A stretch of 41,798 bases of DNA from Candidatus Omnitrophota bacterium. Lineage in GTDB: Bacteria > Omnitrophota > Gorgyraeia > Zapsychrales > Zapsychraceae. Made by a program: the position numbers and the translations under genes. Below the pieces are notes generated by a model. The model ran no database searches. It was given only the letters and a program-made list of their open reading frames with translations, and was not told where the DNA came from. This document shows, one piece after another, positions 3,445 through 23,831 of this stretch (position 1 is its first letter; the number at the start of each line of letters is the position of its first letter). Location: assembly GCA_029568545.1 (NCBI GenBank), contig JAKQAH010000035.1, forward strand, positions 1 through 41,798, in the 5' to 3' direction.

Positions 3445-3972
3445 CCCGCTATTCCTAACGGAAGTGGACTTTCTCTTCACCGTCGGCTTAACGTTACGGT
3501 GGCAGGTGTAAAGTCTCTGCACGTTCCCTGAACACTTAGGATCAGGGCTTCGCTCAGGATTACCCGCCGGTTTCCCGGTTTGGGCTTCCCTGAATTAGCC
3601 TGCTGTTTCAACCGGCGTTTCCGCCGGAAGCTGCGTCTGAGCATGAATTTCACGATGACAATTGGCACAAACAAGAAGACATTTATCGATCTCTTCTCGT
3701 ACCTTAGTCCAACTTCGAGTATAACCTTTACTCGAAACACTGAAATCCTTTTGATCAGGATCTCGGTGATGGAACTCTAAGGCTTCGATACAGCGGTCAT
3801 AACCACAAATCTGGCATCGACCACCCTTATATTCAACTGCTTTCTGTCTCATTTTCTTACGTCTTTTATGGACAGCAGCAATTAAATATTGCCGGCGATC
3901 TTTGTATGTCCGCGTATCTTTTCTTGCCATTGCCCTCATCCATTTGCTCGTTCCGCCTTCGGCGGAACTCTC
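3438..3972 (-). ncRNA. Group I intron (IC3-like), 535 nt, between tRNA positions 35 and 36
   Basis: 5' exon ends in U and intron ends in G. P AATTCAGGGAA (3596-3586), Q AATCCTGAGC (3561-3552), R GCAGAGACT (3520-3512), S AAGAGAAAGTCC (3477-3466). IGS GCAGCT (3634-3629) pairs with exon GGCTGT including a U.G pair. P2 CCGGCG-GAAA-CGCCGG; P9 CCGTTA-GGAA-TAGCGG. Confidence 0.93.
3595..3939 (-). CDS. Intron-encoded HNH endonuclease (putative homing endonuclease)
   Basis: CQICG..LEFHH..CANCHREIH (two CxxC plus HNH), basic N-terminus; wholly inside the intron. Start at 3939 or 3930. Confidence 0.88.
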   Translation of the reverse strand: MRAMARKDTRTYKDRRQYLIAAVHKRRKKMRQKAVEYKGGRCQICGYDRCIEALEFHHRDPDQKDFSVSSKGYTRSWTKVREEIDKCLLVCANCHREIHAQTQLPAETPVETAG

Positions 3973-17506: not shown

Positions 17507-17523
17507 TTTACCTTTTCACCACT

Positions 17524-17602
17524 GTCATTCTGAGCGAAGCGAAGAATCTAGACCGACAAGATTCTTCTACCCCATACTTAAACGATGGGGTATCAGAATG
17601 AC
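17524..17602. repeat. REP/MITE-like palindromic element between pgaA and pgaB
   Basis: Terminal IR GTCATTCTGA/TCAGAATGAC enclosing GCGAAGC and two inner stems (GAAGAATCT/AGATTCTTC, TACCCCAT/ATGGGGTA). Confidence 0.75.
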
Positions 17603-17608
17603 GAAATG

Positions 17609-20600
17609 TTAAAACTTAAACCTTAGCGTCGTGTAAACATTCAGCGCATCCGTGCCTTCCCCGTCATATTCGTTCATGCTGTAGGTCGCCCCGATCAGCC
17701 AGCTCTTGGTGTCGGAGAACTGATGGTCCTGCTCATAACGGATATATCCCACGTCGCTGCTTCCGAAATTATCCTGCCATTTTTTTCCCACCCCGACATA
17801 CATGCGGTCGACCCAGGCTTTGTCATAGCGCCGGAACCATGTATGTTCGACCATCGGGACGAGATAGAACGAATAAACTTCCTCAGGGCTGAAATAGCCG
17901 ACGTCCTGGTCGGCAAAAGTTTCATAGCTGAATTCCGTTCCAAGGCGCGTTTTCCAATAAGCAGACGTGGTCAAAGCTGTATCCGTCCTCCAAAAATAAT
18001 TAAAATATTCGTTATCATCCGTAAAATCTTTATAAGAAACCCCGAGCGTCGTATCAAACACTTCGCTGGCCCGATAAGTGGCCGACAATGTGTAGCGGTC
18101 CGCCTCGACGCCATCCGCTCTTGACCGCGAAGGAATATCCAACGTATTGGATTCATACCCAAAATCAAAGGTCCAATGATCATCCGGCTGGTAGCGGACT
18201 TCCCCCAAAAATCCCAGTTCATCAGTTTCCTCATAATCGCCGGTCAAAGCGCCTACCAGGCGCCAAGCGTTGTTGACCTGCCATTCATCCCCAATTCTGA
18301 ATTTGCGCGCAATCTCGTTGCCGTCTACCTGATTCGTTTCGCGGCGGATGATCTCGGCGAACAAATTATGATGAAACCCGACCGGTTGATCTCCGCGCAG
18401 CGAAAGCGTGAATTCTTCATCCCCTGGCCATTCAGTCGTATAGCTGCCGCTAAACGTCACCGTGGACATTTCCTCCACTTCAAAAGCGCGTTGGAGGCGC
18501 TGCGCGTGTTTATTAGTCGGCTTCTTCTCTAATATGGCCTTGAGCTCTTCCCGCGCCTCTTCTTTCTGCATGTTCTCATTGAGCGCCCGGGCGTACCCGA
18601 TACGGGCGGATATCAGCGTATCATCGATCGTGCGGACCGCTTTAAAATCTTCCAACGCCCGGCGTTTCCAGCCGCGATATAAATGATTATGGGCCTCCGC
18701 CGTTCTTAAATCCGTATTAAACGGCGATACTTTTTTCACATCTTTAATATATTTTTCCGCTTCTCTTAAGCGGTCCTGGTACATCAACAACCACGCCTTG
18801 TTGAAGGCAATGTCCGCCTTCTGCCAGTTATCTTGCAAAATCCCGCGCTCGATGATCTTCTCCGGCGTTACTTGGTCGATCCGGTCCAATTTCTCTTGCG
18901 CTTCTTTAAACCTTCCCAGATCGACGAGCGTATAGTACACCGACATTTGCACATCAAACGATGGATCCGTTTGGGCCAATCTGTTAAAAATTTCCAATGC
19001 TTCTTCGGGCTTCTCGAGATAGAGGTAAGCATCTGCCGCCGACCGTTCAACCCATGGCGGGACCTCTGTTCCTTCCCGGACAAGAGCCTCATAGGCGTCG
19101 ACAATCTCCTGCATCTTCTCTTCCTGCCGCAGCGCCAGGAACCGATCCCATTGAACCCGTTGATAATTCTCCGACACTTTTTCATCTTCCGGATTTTCCG
19201 AGGATGCGCGTTCATATTCCTCTTGGAATTGGTCGATCTTCTGCAAAGCCAACTTCGATTCCTCCCAACGGATCTCATGCATCGGAACGTTCGTCCGCGC
19301 GCGCTCGACTACGACAGCATCAACAATATCGGGATGCTGTTCCGCTTCCCTAAGAACAATGCTTGTCGCGCCGAGATCCATCAAGCTCCTGAGTTTGAGG
19401 TTGAATGCCGCACGATTATCGGGAAAGATCTTTAGGATTTGGTCATAGACTTTCACGGCCTTCCAATATTCGCCGGTCGCATCATAAATTTCGGCCTTGA
19501 GGAACATCGCTTCCTGTTGCTGCGGATCCGCCTTTAAAACCTCGTCGATCAAACTCAAAGCTTTTTCTGTATCCCCTTCTTCCATATTCGACCGGATAAA
19601 AGCCAACTGGACCCGATTCGCATACTCTTGTTCCTCGATGGCTTCAACATAGGGAGCAATATATTGCCAATGCTTTTCCGGCAATGCGATCTCCTTATCG
19701 CATCTTTTATAGGCGCGGGCGACTTCTTTAAGAAAATACGGGGCCGGATCCTGATCGATATTCATCTGCTGATAATCCGAAACGGCTTGCTCAAAATTTT
19801 CCTGCCAGATGTAGATGACAATGCGGTCCATTGCGATCTGCTGCGATTTATTCTCAAAAACCTCCAGCCGATCAAGAAGGCCTAACGCCTCATTAAATTG
19901 ATCCTGGCGGGCAAAGGCAATAGCCTCATCATAAACCAGATAAAACCCTTCGTTCATATCGCTTAATATATCGGCTGGCAGAGAATCCCCGGCCTCTTTT
20001 TTGATCTGTTCGATCGCATCAAAGAATCCCTTCCACTGTTTCTGGGAAGCGTAAAGCAGCGCTTGTAAACTTTGCAAGCGCAATGCGTCGGAATGGTCCT
20101 CTACGGCCTTGCTCAATAGGTTCTGGGCAGATGCAAGATCCCCGGTCTGGACCAAGGCATAGATCAGGTTGATCTTTACATCTATATCGGTGGGATCTTT
20201 TTGAAGAACATCTTTCGAGAGGTCAATAGCATCCGCATAACGCCCGACTTCTTTGAGAGCTTTGATGATTTCTTTCAATACCGAATCCGGCAAATCAGCC
20301 CCGGAATTCTGATCATAAACAGCCAGCGACTCTTCATATTTCTCCGCCCAAGCCGAAATAGCGATATAGTCGGCAAGGATCCCGGGATCTTCCGGGTATT
20401 CATGATAGGCCTTTTGGATATAGCTATAAGCGGAGATCAAATCACCATTGCGGGCATATTGAACAGCCTTGTCGTGATCGCTGAGAACGATCGGCCCGAC
20501 AGTTTGCTCAATGTCCGTGATAATGGGAATCGTTTTCTCTACGCTCAGGTCTTCCCCATAACTATTAGCCGGACATAAGCAAAAAAGAGCGATCGAAATA

Positions 20601-20859: not shown

Positions 20860-21345
20860 TTATCCCTCCTTCCTTAATTCTGCCCTTTTTTTATGAAAAA
20901 ACTGACTTATCAAGCCCCCGCATTCTTCCTCTAAAACCCCTCGAAAAACATCCATGCTGTGATTGAGCTGATTGTTTTGAGCAATATTGAGGACGGATCC
21001 GCAGGCTCCCGTCTTAGGGTCGGCAGCGCCAAAATAAATTGTTTTGATGCGCGCCAGGACAAGAGCGCCAACACACATACTGCAAGGCTCAAGAGTCACG
21101 TAGATCGCGCAATCATAAAGCCATTTGCATGACAAGGCGCTGGCGGCTTGGGTAATCGCGATCATCTCCGCATGAGCCGTAGGATCTTTGAGCATCTCCA
21201 CCTGGTTATGCGCCCTGGCGATGATTTTATTCTCACGAACGATCACGGCGCCGACAGGGACTTCATCTTTGGCGAAAGCGTCCTTCGCCTGCCTTAGCGC
21301 TTCCTTCATGAAAGCATGTTCGGGGTGAAGAATGGATTTCTCCAT
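20860..21345 (-). CDS. tadA: tRNA adenosine(34) deaminase
   Basis: EVPVGA, PTAHAE, TLEPCSMC, DPKTGACGS, QLNH, FF. Start probably 21345. Confidence 0.95.
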   Translation of the reverse strand: MEKSILHPEHAFMKEALRQAKDAFAKDEVPVGAVIVRENKIIARAHNQVEMLKDPTAHAEMIAITQAASALSCKWLYDCAIYVTLEPCSMCVGALVLARIKTIYFGAADPKTGACGSVLNIAQNNQLNHSMDVFRGVLEEECGGLISQFFHKKRAELRKEG

Positions 21346-21349
21346 CAGG

Positions 21350-22978
21350 CTATTTTCGTTTTGATTGTTTAAAAGAGCCATAAACCGGAAGCAAGATCGT
21401 CACAAGAGTTCCCTTATGGACATCGCTTTTGATCATGACTTCGCCCTGATGGCTTGTGATAATGGAATAAACAACGGAAAGCCCGAGCCCTGAGCTTTTT
21501 GCCAGCCCATGGGATTTGGTGGTAAAAAACGGCTCGAAAACACGGCCCAAAACCTCGGGAGGGATCCCGATGCCGTCGTCCTGGCAATCAATGCGCACGG
21601 AACGGGCCTTTTGGCAGGTCGCTTTGATCCGGATCTTCCCTCCGCCGCTGGGTAACGATTGAATCGCATTGCTTAATACATTGTTCAAGGCCTGGCCTAA
21701 ATCAAACGCCCCGATCGCCACCCGAGGCAAATGTGAACTGATCTTTAAGGCAACATCAATATCCGAAGATTCCAACGAATGTTTTAAAAGATTGACGGTT
21801 TCCCGGATCACCGCGTCAACATCGCAGTGCCGCCCTTCCACTTTTGCCTTCCTTCGGCTGAGGCTAACAATTTTCTCCGTCGTCTCATAGCAGTATTTCA
21901 CCTGATCGTTGATCGTGCGCAGCGTTTTCATGATGTCGCTGAATTCCTTGTAGCCGATATATTCAAAATAACAATTCTGGTATTTGTTGATTAATCCCTG
22001 GGAACGAACCGCGAGGCCTTTGAGCGGGTGCTGGATCTCGCGGGCCATCCCGGCGACAAAATGCTGCAAGGCCTTCATCTTTTCCGATTCCCGGACAAGC
22101 TTCTCCATTTCTTTCCTCTGGCTCATGTTGCGGAACAGCACATGGGCCTGGGTCACTTTCTTGCCGATAAAAATCGGCGAAGCAATAAATTCCGACGGGA
22201 TGATCTTACCATCCTTGCTCCTTATATCGAGATCGTTGCAAACCGAAGGGGCCCCGCCTTTGACCAAGCTGAAACACGCTTGCGCTTTCGGCAAGGACGA
22301 CCGTTCCATATAGGCGCTAAAATGCGTGCCGATGACTTTTGAGACCGGCATCTTGAACATTTGCGCTGCCGCTTTGTTGGCGTACATGATCATGCCGTTC
22401 ATATTGACCATCAAAATGCCTTCGGCCGCCTGTTCGCTCAAGACCCGATAGCGGTCCTCGGACGCTTTCAGCCTGGTTTGAAAAGCCAGCTGCTGGGTGA
22501 TATCCCGCCCGACCGTCAGGATGTAATCTTCGGACCTGTAGACCATATGCGCGGCGGTGATTTCAATCGTCCGGACCTTGCCCCCCTTGACGAGCCGGTT
22601 GATGATATAGACGGCCGGTTTTTTCTTTTTTCTGATCTCGTCAAAATATGTTTTCTTCCATTTGGAAAAACCTATTTTCTCCTGGAAGAAATCTGTTACC
22701 GGACGGTATAAAATGTCTTTAAGAGGGTACCCGAGACCCCGGACCGTCGCTTTATTGACAAAAATAATGCGCGCCCGGCTGTCCGATATCATGACCTCGT
22801 CGCCTATTTGGTCCACAACGTGCCGGAAAAAATCCGGACCGTCTTTGGAAAAAGGCGGATTCTTTGAGGCGTTTTCAAAAGATATTCGATGGGAAGAATA
22901 TTTTGATCGGGAAGATCGACCCAAGGATGCGGGAGAGCGCGATTCGGAAGGCTGGGAACGCTTTTTTTGCATCGTCAT
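21350..22978 (-). CDS. Cytoplasmic two-PAS sensor histidine-kinase-like protein with a degenerate H-box
   Basis: Two PAS domains; N box NVLSNAIQS, DDGIGI, FEPFFTTK, GLGL; H-box reads AREIQHPL. Start uncertain. Confidence 0.88.
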   Translation of the reverse strand: MTMQKKRSQPSESRSPASLGRSSRSKYSSHRISFENASKNPPFSKDGPDFFRHVVDQIGDEVMISDSRARIIFVNKATVRGLGYPLKDILYRPVTDFFQEKIGFSKWKKTYFDEIRKKKKPAVYIINRLVKGGKVRTIEITAAHMVYRSEDYILTVGRDITQQLAFQTRLKASEDRYRVLSEQAAEGILMVNMNGMIMYANKAAAQMFKMPVSKVIGTHFSAYMERSSLPKAQACFSLVKGGAPSVCNDLDIRSKDGKIIPSEFIASPIFIGKKVTQAHVLFRNMSQRKEMEKLVRESEKMKALQHFVAGMAREIQHPLKGLAVRSQGLINKYQNCYFEYIGYKEFSDIMKTLRTINDQVKYCYETTEKIVSLSRRKAKVEGRHCDVDAVIRETVNLLKHSLESSDIDVALKISSHLPRVAIGAFDLGQALNNVLSNAIQSLPSGGGKIRIKATCQKARSVRIDCQDDGIGIPPEVLGRVFEPFFTTKSHGLAKSSGLGLSVVYSIITSHQGEVMIKSDVHKGTLVTILLPVYGSFKQSKRK

Positions 22979-23047
22979 TTGTGCTCTTTTAGAATTTGGC
23001 GCGCCGGGACCCCTAGCTAAGAAAAGCGAGGTAAGCACCACGGCTTT

Positions 23048-23124
23048 TGGTGCGCCTGAGAGGATTCGAACCTCTAACCCTCTGCTCCGTAGGCAGATGC
23101 TCTATCCAATTGAGCTACAGGCGC
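23048..23124 (-). tRNA. tRNA-Arg(ACG)
   Basis: GCGCCTGTAGCTCAATTGGATAGAGCA-TCTGC-CTACGGA-GCAGA..GGTTCGAATCC..CAGGCGC-A-CCA, 77 nt. Confidence 0.97.
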
Positions 23125-23155
23125 AAATTACAATAATTTTTATTTAGAACAATTT

Positions 23156-23325
23156 GCGCCAGTACCCCTTCGTTCAAGTCCTGGGTGCAGGCGCAAACGA
23201 CAATAATATTTTATTTAGAGACATTTGCGCCAGTACCCCGTCTACCAACTCAGGGTGCAGGCGCATGCAAAACAAAAACAAATAATCCCCGCTAGTACCC
23301 CATCCAATAACTCCGGGTAAGGCGC
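23156..23325 (-). repeat. Tandem array of three tRNA-leader hairpin units (23156-23194, 23227-23264, degenerate about 23289-23325)
   Basis: GCGCCTGCACCC-N13/14-GGGGTACTGGCGC with similar AT-rich linkers, period about 70 nt. Confidence 0.85.
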
Positions 23326-23359
23326 GCATGAAAAATATTATCAGTAACTTTTGTGCAGT

Positions 23360-23387
23360 ATTATATCAGCGATTTTGATATTGGCAA
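23360..23387 (-). promoter_or_regulatory. Putative sigma-70 promoter of tRNA-Arg
   Basis: TTGCCA-N16-TATAAT upstream of the repeat array. Confidence 0.55.
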
Positions 23388-23453
23388 GAAGGTTGTGCGG
23401 CTTTACTCTGGAAAGATGATCCTGGGAGCATCCCCATCATACCGGGATAGAAA

Positions 23454-23831
23454 TCATCTGTTGGCGCCCAGGCAAGTTTCTATTTTATGAATGAGTTCAG
23501 GGGGCGCGATCGGCTTGATCAAATATTCCTTGACCCCCTCGCATTTGAACACTTCTTCCATTTCTTCTTTAGCCGTTATAACAATGACGGGCAGCATGGG
23601 CTGGCGCTCAACCACCCTCAGGGCCCGCAGCGTGCGGATGAACACATACCCGTCCATGGACGGCATCATCACATCCAGGACAATCAGATCGGGCTGGCAG
23701 TTCCGGACCTGTTCCAGGCCTTCGTTGCCGTCATTCGCCGTGTACACCTCATATTGTTTTTTCAGCAAAGCAGCTTTGACCATCTCAACGACCGTTCGGT
23801 CATCGTCGATAACAAGGATTTTATGCGCCAT
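23454..23831 (-). CDS. Single-domain response regulator (receiver)
   Basis: ILVIDDD, LDVMMP, ITA, IKP; AGGAG before the ATG. Confidence 0.93.
   Translation of the reverse strand: MAHKILVIDDDRTVVEMVKAALLKKQYEVYTANDGNEGLEQVRNCQPDLIVLDVMMPSMDGYVFIRTLRALRVVERQPMLPVIVITAKEEMEEVFKCEGVKEYLIKPIAPPELIHKIETCLGANR

Follow-up and report, generated by a model that had tools for sequence, protein, structure and literature searches.

Palindromic leader modules matched to the following tRNA upstream of tRNA genes in Omnitrophota

The stretch of DNA analysed here (the window; 41,798 nt, positions 1 to 41,798 of the forward strand of contig JAKQAH010000035.1, assembly GCA_029568545.1) stems from the genome of a Candidatus Omnitrophota bacterium, termed G000 in the following, and carries upstream of its tRNA-Arg(ACG) gene a tandem array of hairpin units whose outer arms are matched to the beginning of that very tRNA. 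Units fitted to other tRNAs are present elsewhere in the same genome and in relatives, their number differs between congeners, and a second helix, termed H2, that joins the 3' arm of a unit to the real tRNA 5' end covaries across species. We see about an even chance that the units represent an Omnitrophota-specific palindromic leader module that is locally templated, amplifies in tandem, is co-transcribed with the tRNA, is removed in the course of tRNA processing and is tolerated by way of self-masking. Such a module begins with segment A, a copy of the leader end together with the first 7-9 nt of the tRNA, followed by X, a hairpin from a dispersed and lineage-specific hairpin family. The subsequent anti-segment (A' plus B) is the complement of A and, to the same extent, of the genuine end of the leader with tRNA nt 1-5; a T usually stays unpaired at nt 6. 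An AT-rich linker forms the last part.

In the leader of tRNA-Arg(ACG), the good units read GCGCCTG, CACCC, loop, GGGGTA, CTGGCGC and A on the minus strand, each unit being about 39 nt long and followed by an AT-rich linker of about 31 nt (Table 1). An earlier reading of the sequence alone had described hairpin units in this leader, the last of them degenerate, and had noted that the first two start with the first 7 nt of the tRNA; both statements hold. Two good units and one decayed unit are present, Tandem Repeats Finder reports a repeat at 23118-23265 with period 71 (2.1 copies, 85% matches, score 208), and a repeat search finds three copies spaced by 71 and 62 nt. The loop of unit 1 comprises 15 nt between CACCC and GGGTA, that of unit 2 includes AGTTGGTAGA, and the D-loop of tRNA-Arg is AATTGGATAGA. 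The pattern CTGCACCC-N10-18-GGGGTRCTG matches three times in the window (0.00 expected from 100 shuffles) and three times in the whole 1.41-Mb assembly, in which the reversed control pattern does not occur.

The 10-bp inverted repeat over the tRNA 5' end, likewise pointed out in the sequence-only reading, is present as well: GGCGCAAATT (23160-23151) pairs with AATTTGCGCC (23129-23120), and a repeat search extends the arms to 14 nt with 93% complementarity. Two alternative partners are available to the 3' arm of a unit, as had been proposed: the 5' arm of the same unit and the genuine 5' end of the tRNA. The second of these pairings shows compensatory changes across species. Folded as RNA, H2 at the Arg locus has -13.7 kcal/mol (z = -4.36, 1 of 200 shuffles equally good). 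Taken alone, the hairpins of unit 1 (-14.9 kcal/mol, z = -1.93) and unit 2 (-18.1 kcal/mol, z = -2.58) exceed shuffled sequences only modestly, and the decayed unit 3 has z = +0.25, so that support for the units comes from comparison and not from folding energy. Intrinsic terminators were considered and rejected as an explanation of the hairpins, since no T run lies directly 3' of them, the units being followed by A and mixed AT sequence, and no terminator-like site was called in 22900-23600.

No named family fits the array, in agreement with the earlier assessment. At gathering threshold, tRNA and Intron_gpI are the only Rfam matches in the window; with E values up to 10, the region 23040-23400 yielded only sub-threshold microRNA and U1A_PIE matches (13.8-18.4 bits vs. 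cut-offs of 50-87). A literature search, which did not reach supplements, found no description of tRNA-matched leader hairpins.

Table 1. Coordinates of the leader arrays, the tRNA genes and neighbouring features in the window
Feature	Position	Strand	Remarks
Promoter-like site TTGCCA-16-TATAAT	23387-23360	-	11/12 matches, TG before -10; upstream of the whole array
Unit 3, decayed	23325-23288	-	GCGCCTT, inner TACCC..GGGGTA, 3' arm CTAGCGG; 79% identity to unit 2
Unit 2	23264-23227	-	5' arm identical to tRNA nt 1-7; 3' arm CTGGCGC, in which a T faces nt 6; D-loop-like loop
Linker 2, AT-rich	23226-23195	-	Copy of the tRNA-proximal leader; repeats with 81% identity over 43 nt and 88% over 24 nt
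Unit 1	23194-23156	-	5' arm identical to tRNA nt 1-7; 3' arm CTGGCGC, followed by A at 23155
Linker 1, AT-rich	23155-23125	-	Abuts the tRNA 5' end; its two ends are mutually complementary
Helix H2 (span)	23160-23120	-	Unit 3' arm plus 5 nt (23160-23151) with tRNA nt 1-5 and the 5 leader nt before them (23129-23120)
tRNA-Arg(ACG)	23124-23048	-	ARAGORN; Rfam tRNA, 71.2 bits
Promoter-like site TTGACT-16-TATAAT	4163-4136	-	11/12 matches; upstream of the tRNA-Thr leader unit
Thr-type unit	4070-4031	-	5' arm TCCCCTG identical to tRNA-Thr nt 1-7; inner CACCC..GGGTG; 3' arm CTGGGGA
Thr helix H2, perfect 15 bp	4035-4003	-	Unit 3' arm plus 10 following nt with tRNA nt 1-5 and the 10 leader nt before them
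tRNA-Thr(UGU) with group I intron	4007-3397	-	ARAGORN i(34,535); Rfam Intron_gpI, 71.8 bits at 3445-3688
tRNA-less module of the same hairpin family	17520-17605	-	Inner TACCCCAT..ATGGGGTA; two perfectly paired flanks (9 bp, 8 bp)
Large serine recombinase, 573 aa	1723-3444	+	Resolvase, Recombinase and Zn_ribbon_recom domains
Open reading frame, 114 aa	3595-3939		Inside the tRNA-Thr intron
tadA, tRNA adenosine(34) deaminase	20860-21381	-	NCBIfam, 165 bits; two genes downstream of tRNA-Arg(ACG)

The leader of tRNA-Thr(UGU) provides an independent case within the window and accounts for the third match of the CTGCACCC pattern. Its unit folds with -21.4 kcal/mol (z = -3.37) and its H2 with -19.4 kcal/mol (z = -6.85), values that none of 200 shuffles reached in either case. 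The Arg and Thr units share the inner hairpin yet differ in the outer arms (GCGCCTG/CTGGCGC vs. TCCCCTG/CTGGGGA), which means that the arms are fitted to the local tRNA.

Local mimicry extends to other tRNAs of genome G000, for which ARAGORN predicts 34 tRNAs. The same design occurs upstream of Ala-GGC (two units), Arg-TCG and Arg-TCT, and decayed versions precede the genes for Gln, Ser-GCT, Gly-GCC and Val-UAC. Five of the 34 tRNAs have another copy of their initial 7-mer in the 300 nt upstream, compared to 20 of 1118 tests with the 7-mer of another tRNA and 158 of 6800 random windows. Occurrence of the motif away from tRNAs, which the sequence-only reading had named as a refuting observation, was not seen for the exact motif, all three genomic matches of which precede tRNAs, but was seen for the inner core alone: of about 13 copies of YACCC..GGG(G)TR in the 1.41-Mb assembly, three (one in the window) are not accompanied by a tRNA. 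A search for a motif at fixed distance upstream of all tRNAs of the genome revealed only AT-richness and T at position -1, and a loose genome-wide scan with the linker motif gave 250 matches, mostly irrelevant. The leader of transfer-messenger RNA, another RNase P substrate, does not contain an anti-segment. On contig C108 (1-82, minus strand), a unit fitted to tRNA-Arg(UCU) (GTCCCTG...) is present and the contig stops 11 nt into the tRNA; the repeats may break assemblies at tRNA genes. On contig C6 (6815-7276, plus strand), ARAGORN reports a tRNA-Glu(CUC) with a 362-nt intron that may be a false call.

The design is also present in relatives. The order comprises 41 genomes including G000, and tRNA-Arg loci were taken from 29 of the other 40. 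Many of these loci carry one to three units, in which GCGCC(YG) is followed by a stem-loop that varies, the near-complement, A and an AT-rich linker; the inner stems differ between genera. At the same Arg locus with a homologous promoter, four congeners contain no unit (G001), two units (G004) or about three units (G000 and G003). When up to 30 tRNA loci were inspected from each of three genomes, units fitted to Tyr, His, Gln, Ser, Asp, Thr, Met, Ala and several Arg tRNAs were recognized by eye. Between congeners the 5' arm tracks its own tRNA, as exemplified by GGGGCTA (G000) vs. GGGGCCA (G004) at tRNA-Ala and by GCGCCTA at tRNA-Arg of G003; orthologous outer arms are also found degraded within the genus (G003, G004).

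Units were also counted automatically, with two detectors that are both imperfect. A strict unit detector flagged 4 of 32 (G004), 2 of 35 (G036), 3 of 37 (G016) and 5 of 31 (G000) loci, with 28-36 matches in 914-1294 tests when foreign 5-mers were used as a control. A relaxed version flagged 8 of 32, 6 of 35, 5 of 37 and 5 of 31 loci in the same genomes and 5 of 32 other Arg loci; after subtraction of 1, 3, 2 and 0 false calls (a tRNA gene lying upstream, a hairpin resembling a terminator or a fold that did not convince), 7, 3, 3 and 5 remained for G004, G036, G016 and G000, respectively, and several units recognized by eye were missed.

A broad scan with the Arg-specific pattern only, run on 185,579 species with a single genome each, returned 14 stretches, 12 of which (two from one isolate) are labelled Omnitrophota or Omnitrophica. 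The other two lie in DNA of 65% and 73% G+C and look like chance matches, as no hairpin is evident there by eye. Apart from these two, the Arg version of the design was found only in Omnitrophota. A shorter pattern consisting of anti-segment, linker and tRNA start matched in 14 of 401 genomes of the phylum including G000, with no match for the reversed control. The 13 other genomes belong to other classes (nine in family f65, four in family f70), and their hairpin is minimal with an inner stem of 4 bp and a loop of 3-4 nt. A related linker recurs across the phylum. Two metagenome scans for near-identical strain variants of the locus, i.e., for copy-number polymorphism, gave no match.

H2 reaches 4-5 bp past the tRNA-derived part into locus-variable sequence and covaries there across species. 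In 29 distinct linkers (the two chance matches included), offsets 2-4 pair in 26, 27 and 26 cases, whereas permuted partners pair in 49, 58 and 35%, and at least four consecutive Watson-Crick pairs beyond the arm are found in 22 of the 29 linkers vs. 13.7% after permutation. In an alignment of 27 sequences (A1), 97.4% of cells are paired compared to 89.3% in shuffles (0 of 500 as high), 17 cells are changed on both sides vs. 2.9 expected, and slid controls pair in 24-50%; kinship among the sequences inflates these tests, yet three pairs show three pair types each. All covarying pairs are Watson-Crick pairs without any G.U, and perfect H2 palindromes of 15 bp and 18 bp exist. With G.U allowed, contiguous helices of at least 8 bp are modestly enriched (37% vs. 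24%), and the excess is clearer for at least 11 bp (16 of 167 vs. 52 of 2933).

This covariation counts in favor of a rival explanation, to which we assign a real but clearly smaller likelihood, namely that the units form a selected RNA switch in the pre-tRNA leader that times or conditions 5' maturation or folding of the tRNA. H2 would act as a sequestor burying leader nt -1 to -5 and tRNA nt 1-5, thereby barring both RNase P cleavage and formation of the acceptor stem, while the mimic copy, nucleated by hairpin X, would serve as an anti-sequestor that reclaims the anti-segment with the unpaired T as a toehold. H2 spans positions -5 to +5 at the Arg locus and -10 to +5 at the Thr locus. For a designed device, it is reported that RNase P of Escherichia coli is blocked by a sequestor hairpin that covers leader nt -1 to -4 (PMC7897497). 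Stepwise folding predicts that H2 displaces the outer stem of the unit once tRNA nt 1-8 have been made. The predicted minimum-energy fold of the full-length RNA, on the other hand, is a misfold in which the mimic copy pairs with the 3' strand of the tRNA, and not a neat switch; both predictions can serve as a pointer only because nearest-neighbour folding of tRNAs is unreliable. A conserved sensor was not seen; hairpin X differs between genera, ranges from 4 bp to more than 15 bp and in another class is reduced to 4 bp with a loop of 3-4 nt. Decay of units, degradation of orthologous outer arms and the complete lack of a unit in congener G001 likewise speak against a switch, as do the missing G.U pairs in H2 and, less clearly, the apparent lack of a strand bias: among 49 unit hairpins, internal G.U vs. 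A.C counts are 31 vs. 17 in sense and 21 vs. 6 in antisense orientation, and the sense strand is the more stable one in 22 of the 49.

A second leader class was observed in G000 upstream of Val-UAC, Pro-UGG, Pro-CGG and Lys-UUU (contigs C78, about 19520-19618; C115, about 1073-1166; C165; C132). Its first hairpin (GCACCC..GGGTGC) is related to the unit hairpin. The second, of the ACACTTATG..CATAAGTGT type, varies from copy to copy by compensatory changes, and the last leader bases (nt -1 to -8) are covered by a helix of 8-9 bp. The retention of this helix together with a compensatorily changing hairpin again agrees with a switch. A more far-reaching proposal, i.e., a natural gate operating phylum-wide, in which strand exchange between the 5'-strand copy and the real 5' end sets when RNase P sees its site and which is kept in step with each tRNA, appears rather doubtful to us.

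The arms themselves bear on a further rival, according to which the units are decayed tandem copies of tRNA genes, that is pseudo-tRNAs reduced to their two acceptor strands. The D-loop-like loop of unit 2 would fit such an origin, and so would longer 5' tRNA fragments upstream of intact tRNAs in relatives. However, the 3' arm of a unit is the complement of its own 5' arm and not a copy of the 3' strand of the tRNA: at tRNA-Ala with its G3:U70 pair the strand reads TAGCTCC, the unit has TGGCCCC (G3-C), and the same is true for G004. Units of different tRNAs have one inner hairpin in common, and neither ARAGORN nor Rfam calls them. Moreover, a T stands opposite nt 6 irrespective of whether nt 6 is T, C or G, namely in 18 of 27 cases including 16 Y.T mismatches, a figure that is partly built in because 11 of the 27 come from loci picked by a pattern that fixes this T (8 of the other 16 have it). 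At nt 7, pairing is kept in 25 of 27 cases. Altogether, a pseudo-tRNA origin is very improbable; the non-complementary T next to a paired nt 7 counts in favor of the RNA switch introduced above.

With regard to the origin of the units, tRNA genes constitute a hot spot in this order. Dead 5' tRNA fragments (nt 1-16, 1-31 and 1-41) lie just upstream of intact genes in relatives (loci L024, L030, L051, L036, L096 and L121), some of them with palindromic inserts in the D-loop; at L096, a copy of the 3' half is also located downstream of tRNA-Thr. Small open reading frames (ORFs) of the GIY-YIG type (80-150 aa) are present in 39 of the 41 genomes of the order with up to 16 per genome, and 14 of 30 fetched GIY-YIG loci (L162-L191) have a tRNA within 500 nt, often at a distance of about 100 nt, while tRNAs with margins of 500 nt make up, as a rough estimate, 2-3% of such genomes. 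At L180 (1400-1905), the GIY-YIG ORF is flanked on both sides by a direct repeat of tRNA-Asp nt 1-17, and at L179 (1230-1935) such an ORF lies just upstream of a unit and tRNA-Ser. The sequence-only reading had offered decoys or footprints of an element targeting tRNA 5' ends as an alternative. Copy-number turnover, 5' tRNA fragments and the GIY-YIG cassettes of relatives lend substance to the footprint, and no evidence was found for the decoy.

A transposable source of another kind, i.e., a REP/RAYT- or IS200/IS605-like miniature element that is moved as single-stranded DNA by a Y1 transposase, would make the hairpin with its unpaired T the recognition structure and the 3' arm a guide to the tRNA 5' end. 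What is known of IS608 ends agrees with a stem containing an unpaired T and with a guide-like stretch at the foot of the hairpin, the inner core is dispersed in the genome, and PF01797 (Y1_Tnp) matches, many of them in frames of 200-250 aa, exist in 34 of the 41 genomes. The presence of Y1 genes does not strictly track that of units, as G020, G029 and G031 (the latter 96% complete) possess units without a Y1 match. Arms of different sequence are present at Arg, Thr, Ala, Ser, His, Gln and Asp tRNAs, and a fixed guide cannot explain the units because each tRNA would need a guide of its own. Neither a fixed short target nor shared element ends were seen, and the flanking copy varies with the tRNA. 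We therefore regard a Y1-mobilized element as improbable.

In the explanation that we prefer, a locally templated and tolerated leader module, units would arise and multiply as DNA when the A copy and the genuine start of the tRNA undergo duplication or slippage with one another; palindromes growing outwards may contribute. The setting would be a lineage in which the 5' parts of tRNAs often break and re-duplicate, as suggested by the GIY-YIG cassettes and the 5' tRNA fragments; we infer a link between GIY-YIG cutting and the birth of units. Transcribed from the upstream promoter, the array would be a part of the pre-tRNA that is lost upon RNase P cleavage at +1. In the RNA, A' would be paired with the A copy in one state and with the real 5' end in the other, and as the upstream copy and the unpaired T would keep the real 5' end releasable, the insert would be tolerated. 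The array would thus be mainly a tolerated selfish or neutral repeat with self-masking and not primarily a regulator. The helices have a DNA-level style, given that H2 is Watson-Crick without G.U, that perfect palindromes of 15 and 18 bp occur and that sense and antisense strands seem to fold alike; decay of units and changes of their number within a genus point in the same direction. Promoter-like sites upstream of the units, the presence of RNase P RNA in the genome (158 bits) and stepwise folding point towards the RNA level.

At the five unit-bearing loci that possess a promoter-like site (11/12 matches), this site is located upstream of all units, an arrangement that a switch would likewise call for. 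In G001, the congener devoid of units, the homologous site lies about 20 nt upstream of tRNA-Arg (locus L021). A candidate role of the linker as a sigma-70 promoter was rejected, since no good -35/-10 pair was seen by eye, the homologous 3' half in G001 lies downstream of the promoter -10 and strong sites are located upstream of the units.

Several points weigh against the preferred explanation. Judged by consensus matches alone, the units would be transcribed from an upstream promoter; 18 of 24 flagged loci are without a strong promoter-like site within 300 nt, and at a sixth locus, tRNA-Met of G036, the site is situated between the flagged hairpin, which is terminator-like, and the tRNA. The T opposite nt 6 is not predicted by simple templated copying and looks selected. 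The architecture is kept at Arg tRNAs in at least two classes, a finding that fits selection and a conserved generating mechanism equally well. Y1 genes, as candidates for a generating enzyme, are present in 34 of 41 genomes, yet units are also found in three genomes without a match, and neither the Arg nor the Thr locus of the window has a GIY-YIG gene or an ORF between the repeats.

Some features of the window concern the surroundings of the arrays. The tRNA-less module at 17520-17605 is located between a pgaA-like gene and the next gene and is predicted to fold into a three-way junction with -37.5 kcal/mol. The intron of tRNA-Thr(UGU) comprises 535 nt and resides in the anticodon loop; the 114-aa ORF inside it contains Cys and His pairs and has no Pfam match. 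The last codons of the large serine recombinase gene overlap the 3' exon of tRNA-Thr on the opposite strand, and an element with this recombinase may have integrated at tRNA-Thr. TadA, encoded two genes downstream of tRNA-Arg(ACG), usually has exactly this tRNA as its substrate in bacteria.

Bacterial tRNA leaders are usually viewed as short, unstructured and throw-away, in contrast to the leaders of Omnitrophota described here with their long repeated hairpins that fit the tRNA behind them base for base and are able to pair with its 5' end. Tandem repeats that include part of the adjacent tRNA are known from tyrT of E. coli. Those repeats, however, are located downstream and hold the tRNA 3' end; they are not 5'-matched hairpins, and no pairing between them and the tRNA is known. 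The mutually exclusive pairing of mimic copy, anti-segment, real 5' strand and tRNA 3' strand resembles the 1:2, 2:3 and 3:4 pairings of transcription attenuators, but here there is neither a terminator nor a leader peptide and the last helix is the acceptor stem. The REP/BIME/REPIN sequences of proteobacteria, associated with RAYT Y1 transposases, are short imperfect palindromes that are intergenic, often clustered, lineage-specific and co-transcribed with their neighbours. The inner hairpin found in G000 may be comparable in being palindromic and dispersed, and Y1 genes are common in the order. REP copies share one sequence, whereas the outer arms of the Omnitrophota units fit the neighbouring tRNA and the second helix enters it; such locus-specific arms are not REP-like.

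Free-standing GIY-YIG homing endonuclease genes in tRNA regions, such as SegB of phage T4, are described in the available portions of two reports (PMC2330249, PMC13096335), the second of which also deals with segmental amplification driven by SegB. The small GIY-YIG genes adjoining tRNA genes in the present order are similar, the differences being that the genomes are cellular and not those of phages and that no nuclease gene is present at the two loci of the window. The layout of a homing cassette, with a nuclease ORF between tRNA 5' repeats, was found in L180 and not at the Arg and Thr leaders of the window.

For the annotation of Omnitrophota, an uncultivated phylum, the units matter under either reading, as they produce partial tRNA matches, mimic terminators and may cause assemblies to break at tRNA genes. 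If they are selfish repeats, they stand for a new way in which repeats inhabit the transcript of an essential gene non-lethally and for a new local templating of arms. The closest parallel on the RNA side is a synthetic RNase P riboswitch, in which, according to the available text, a hairpin masks the leader upstream of +1 and a competing upstream structure frees it (PMC7897497). That device is man-made, contains a ligand-binding aptamer and has a helix that stops at -1, whereas in Omnitrophota tRNA nt 1-5 lie within the helix and the competing structure consists of a copy of the tRNA 5' end. Should the units be switches, control of the tRNA supply through RNase P would be known from nature for the first time, and the units would be the counterpart of this designed riboswitch.

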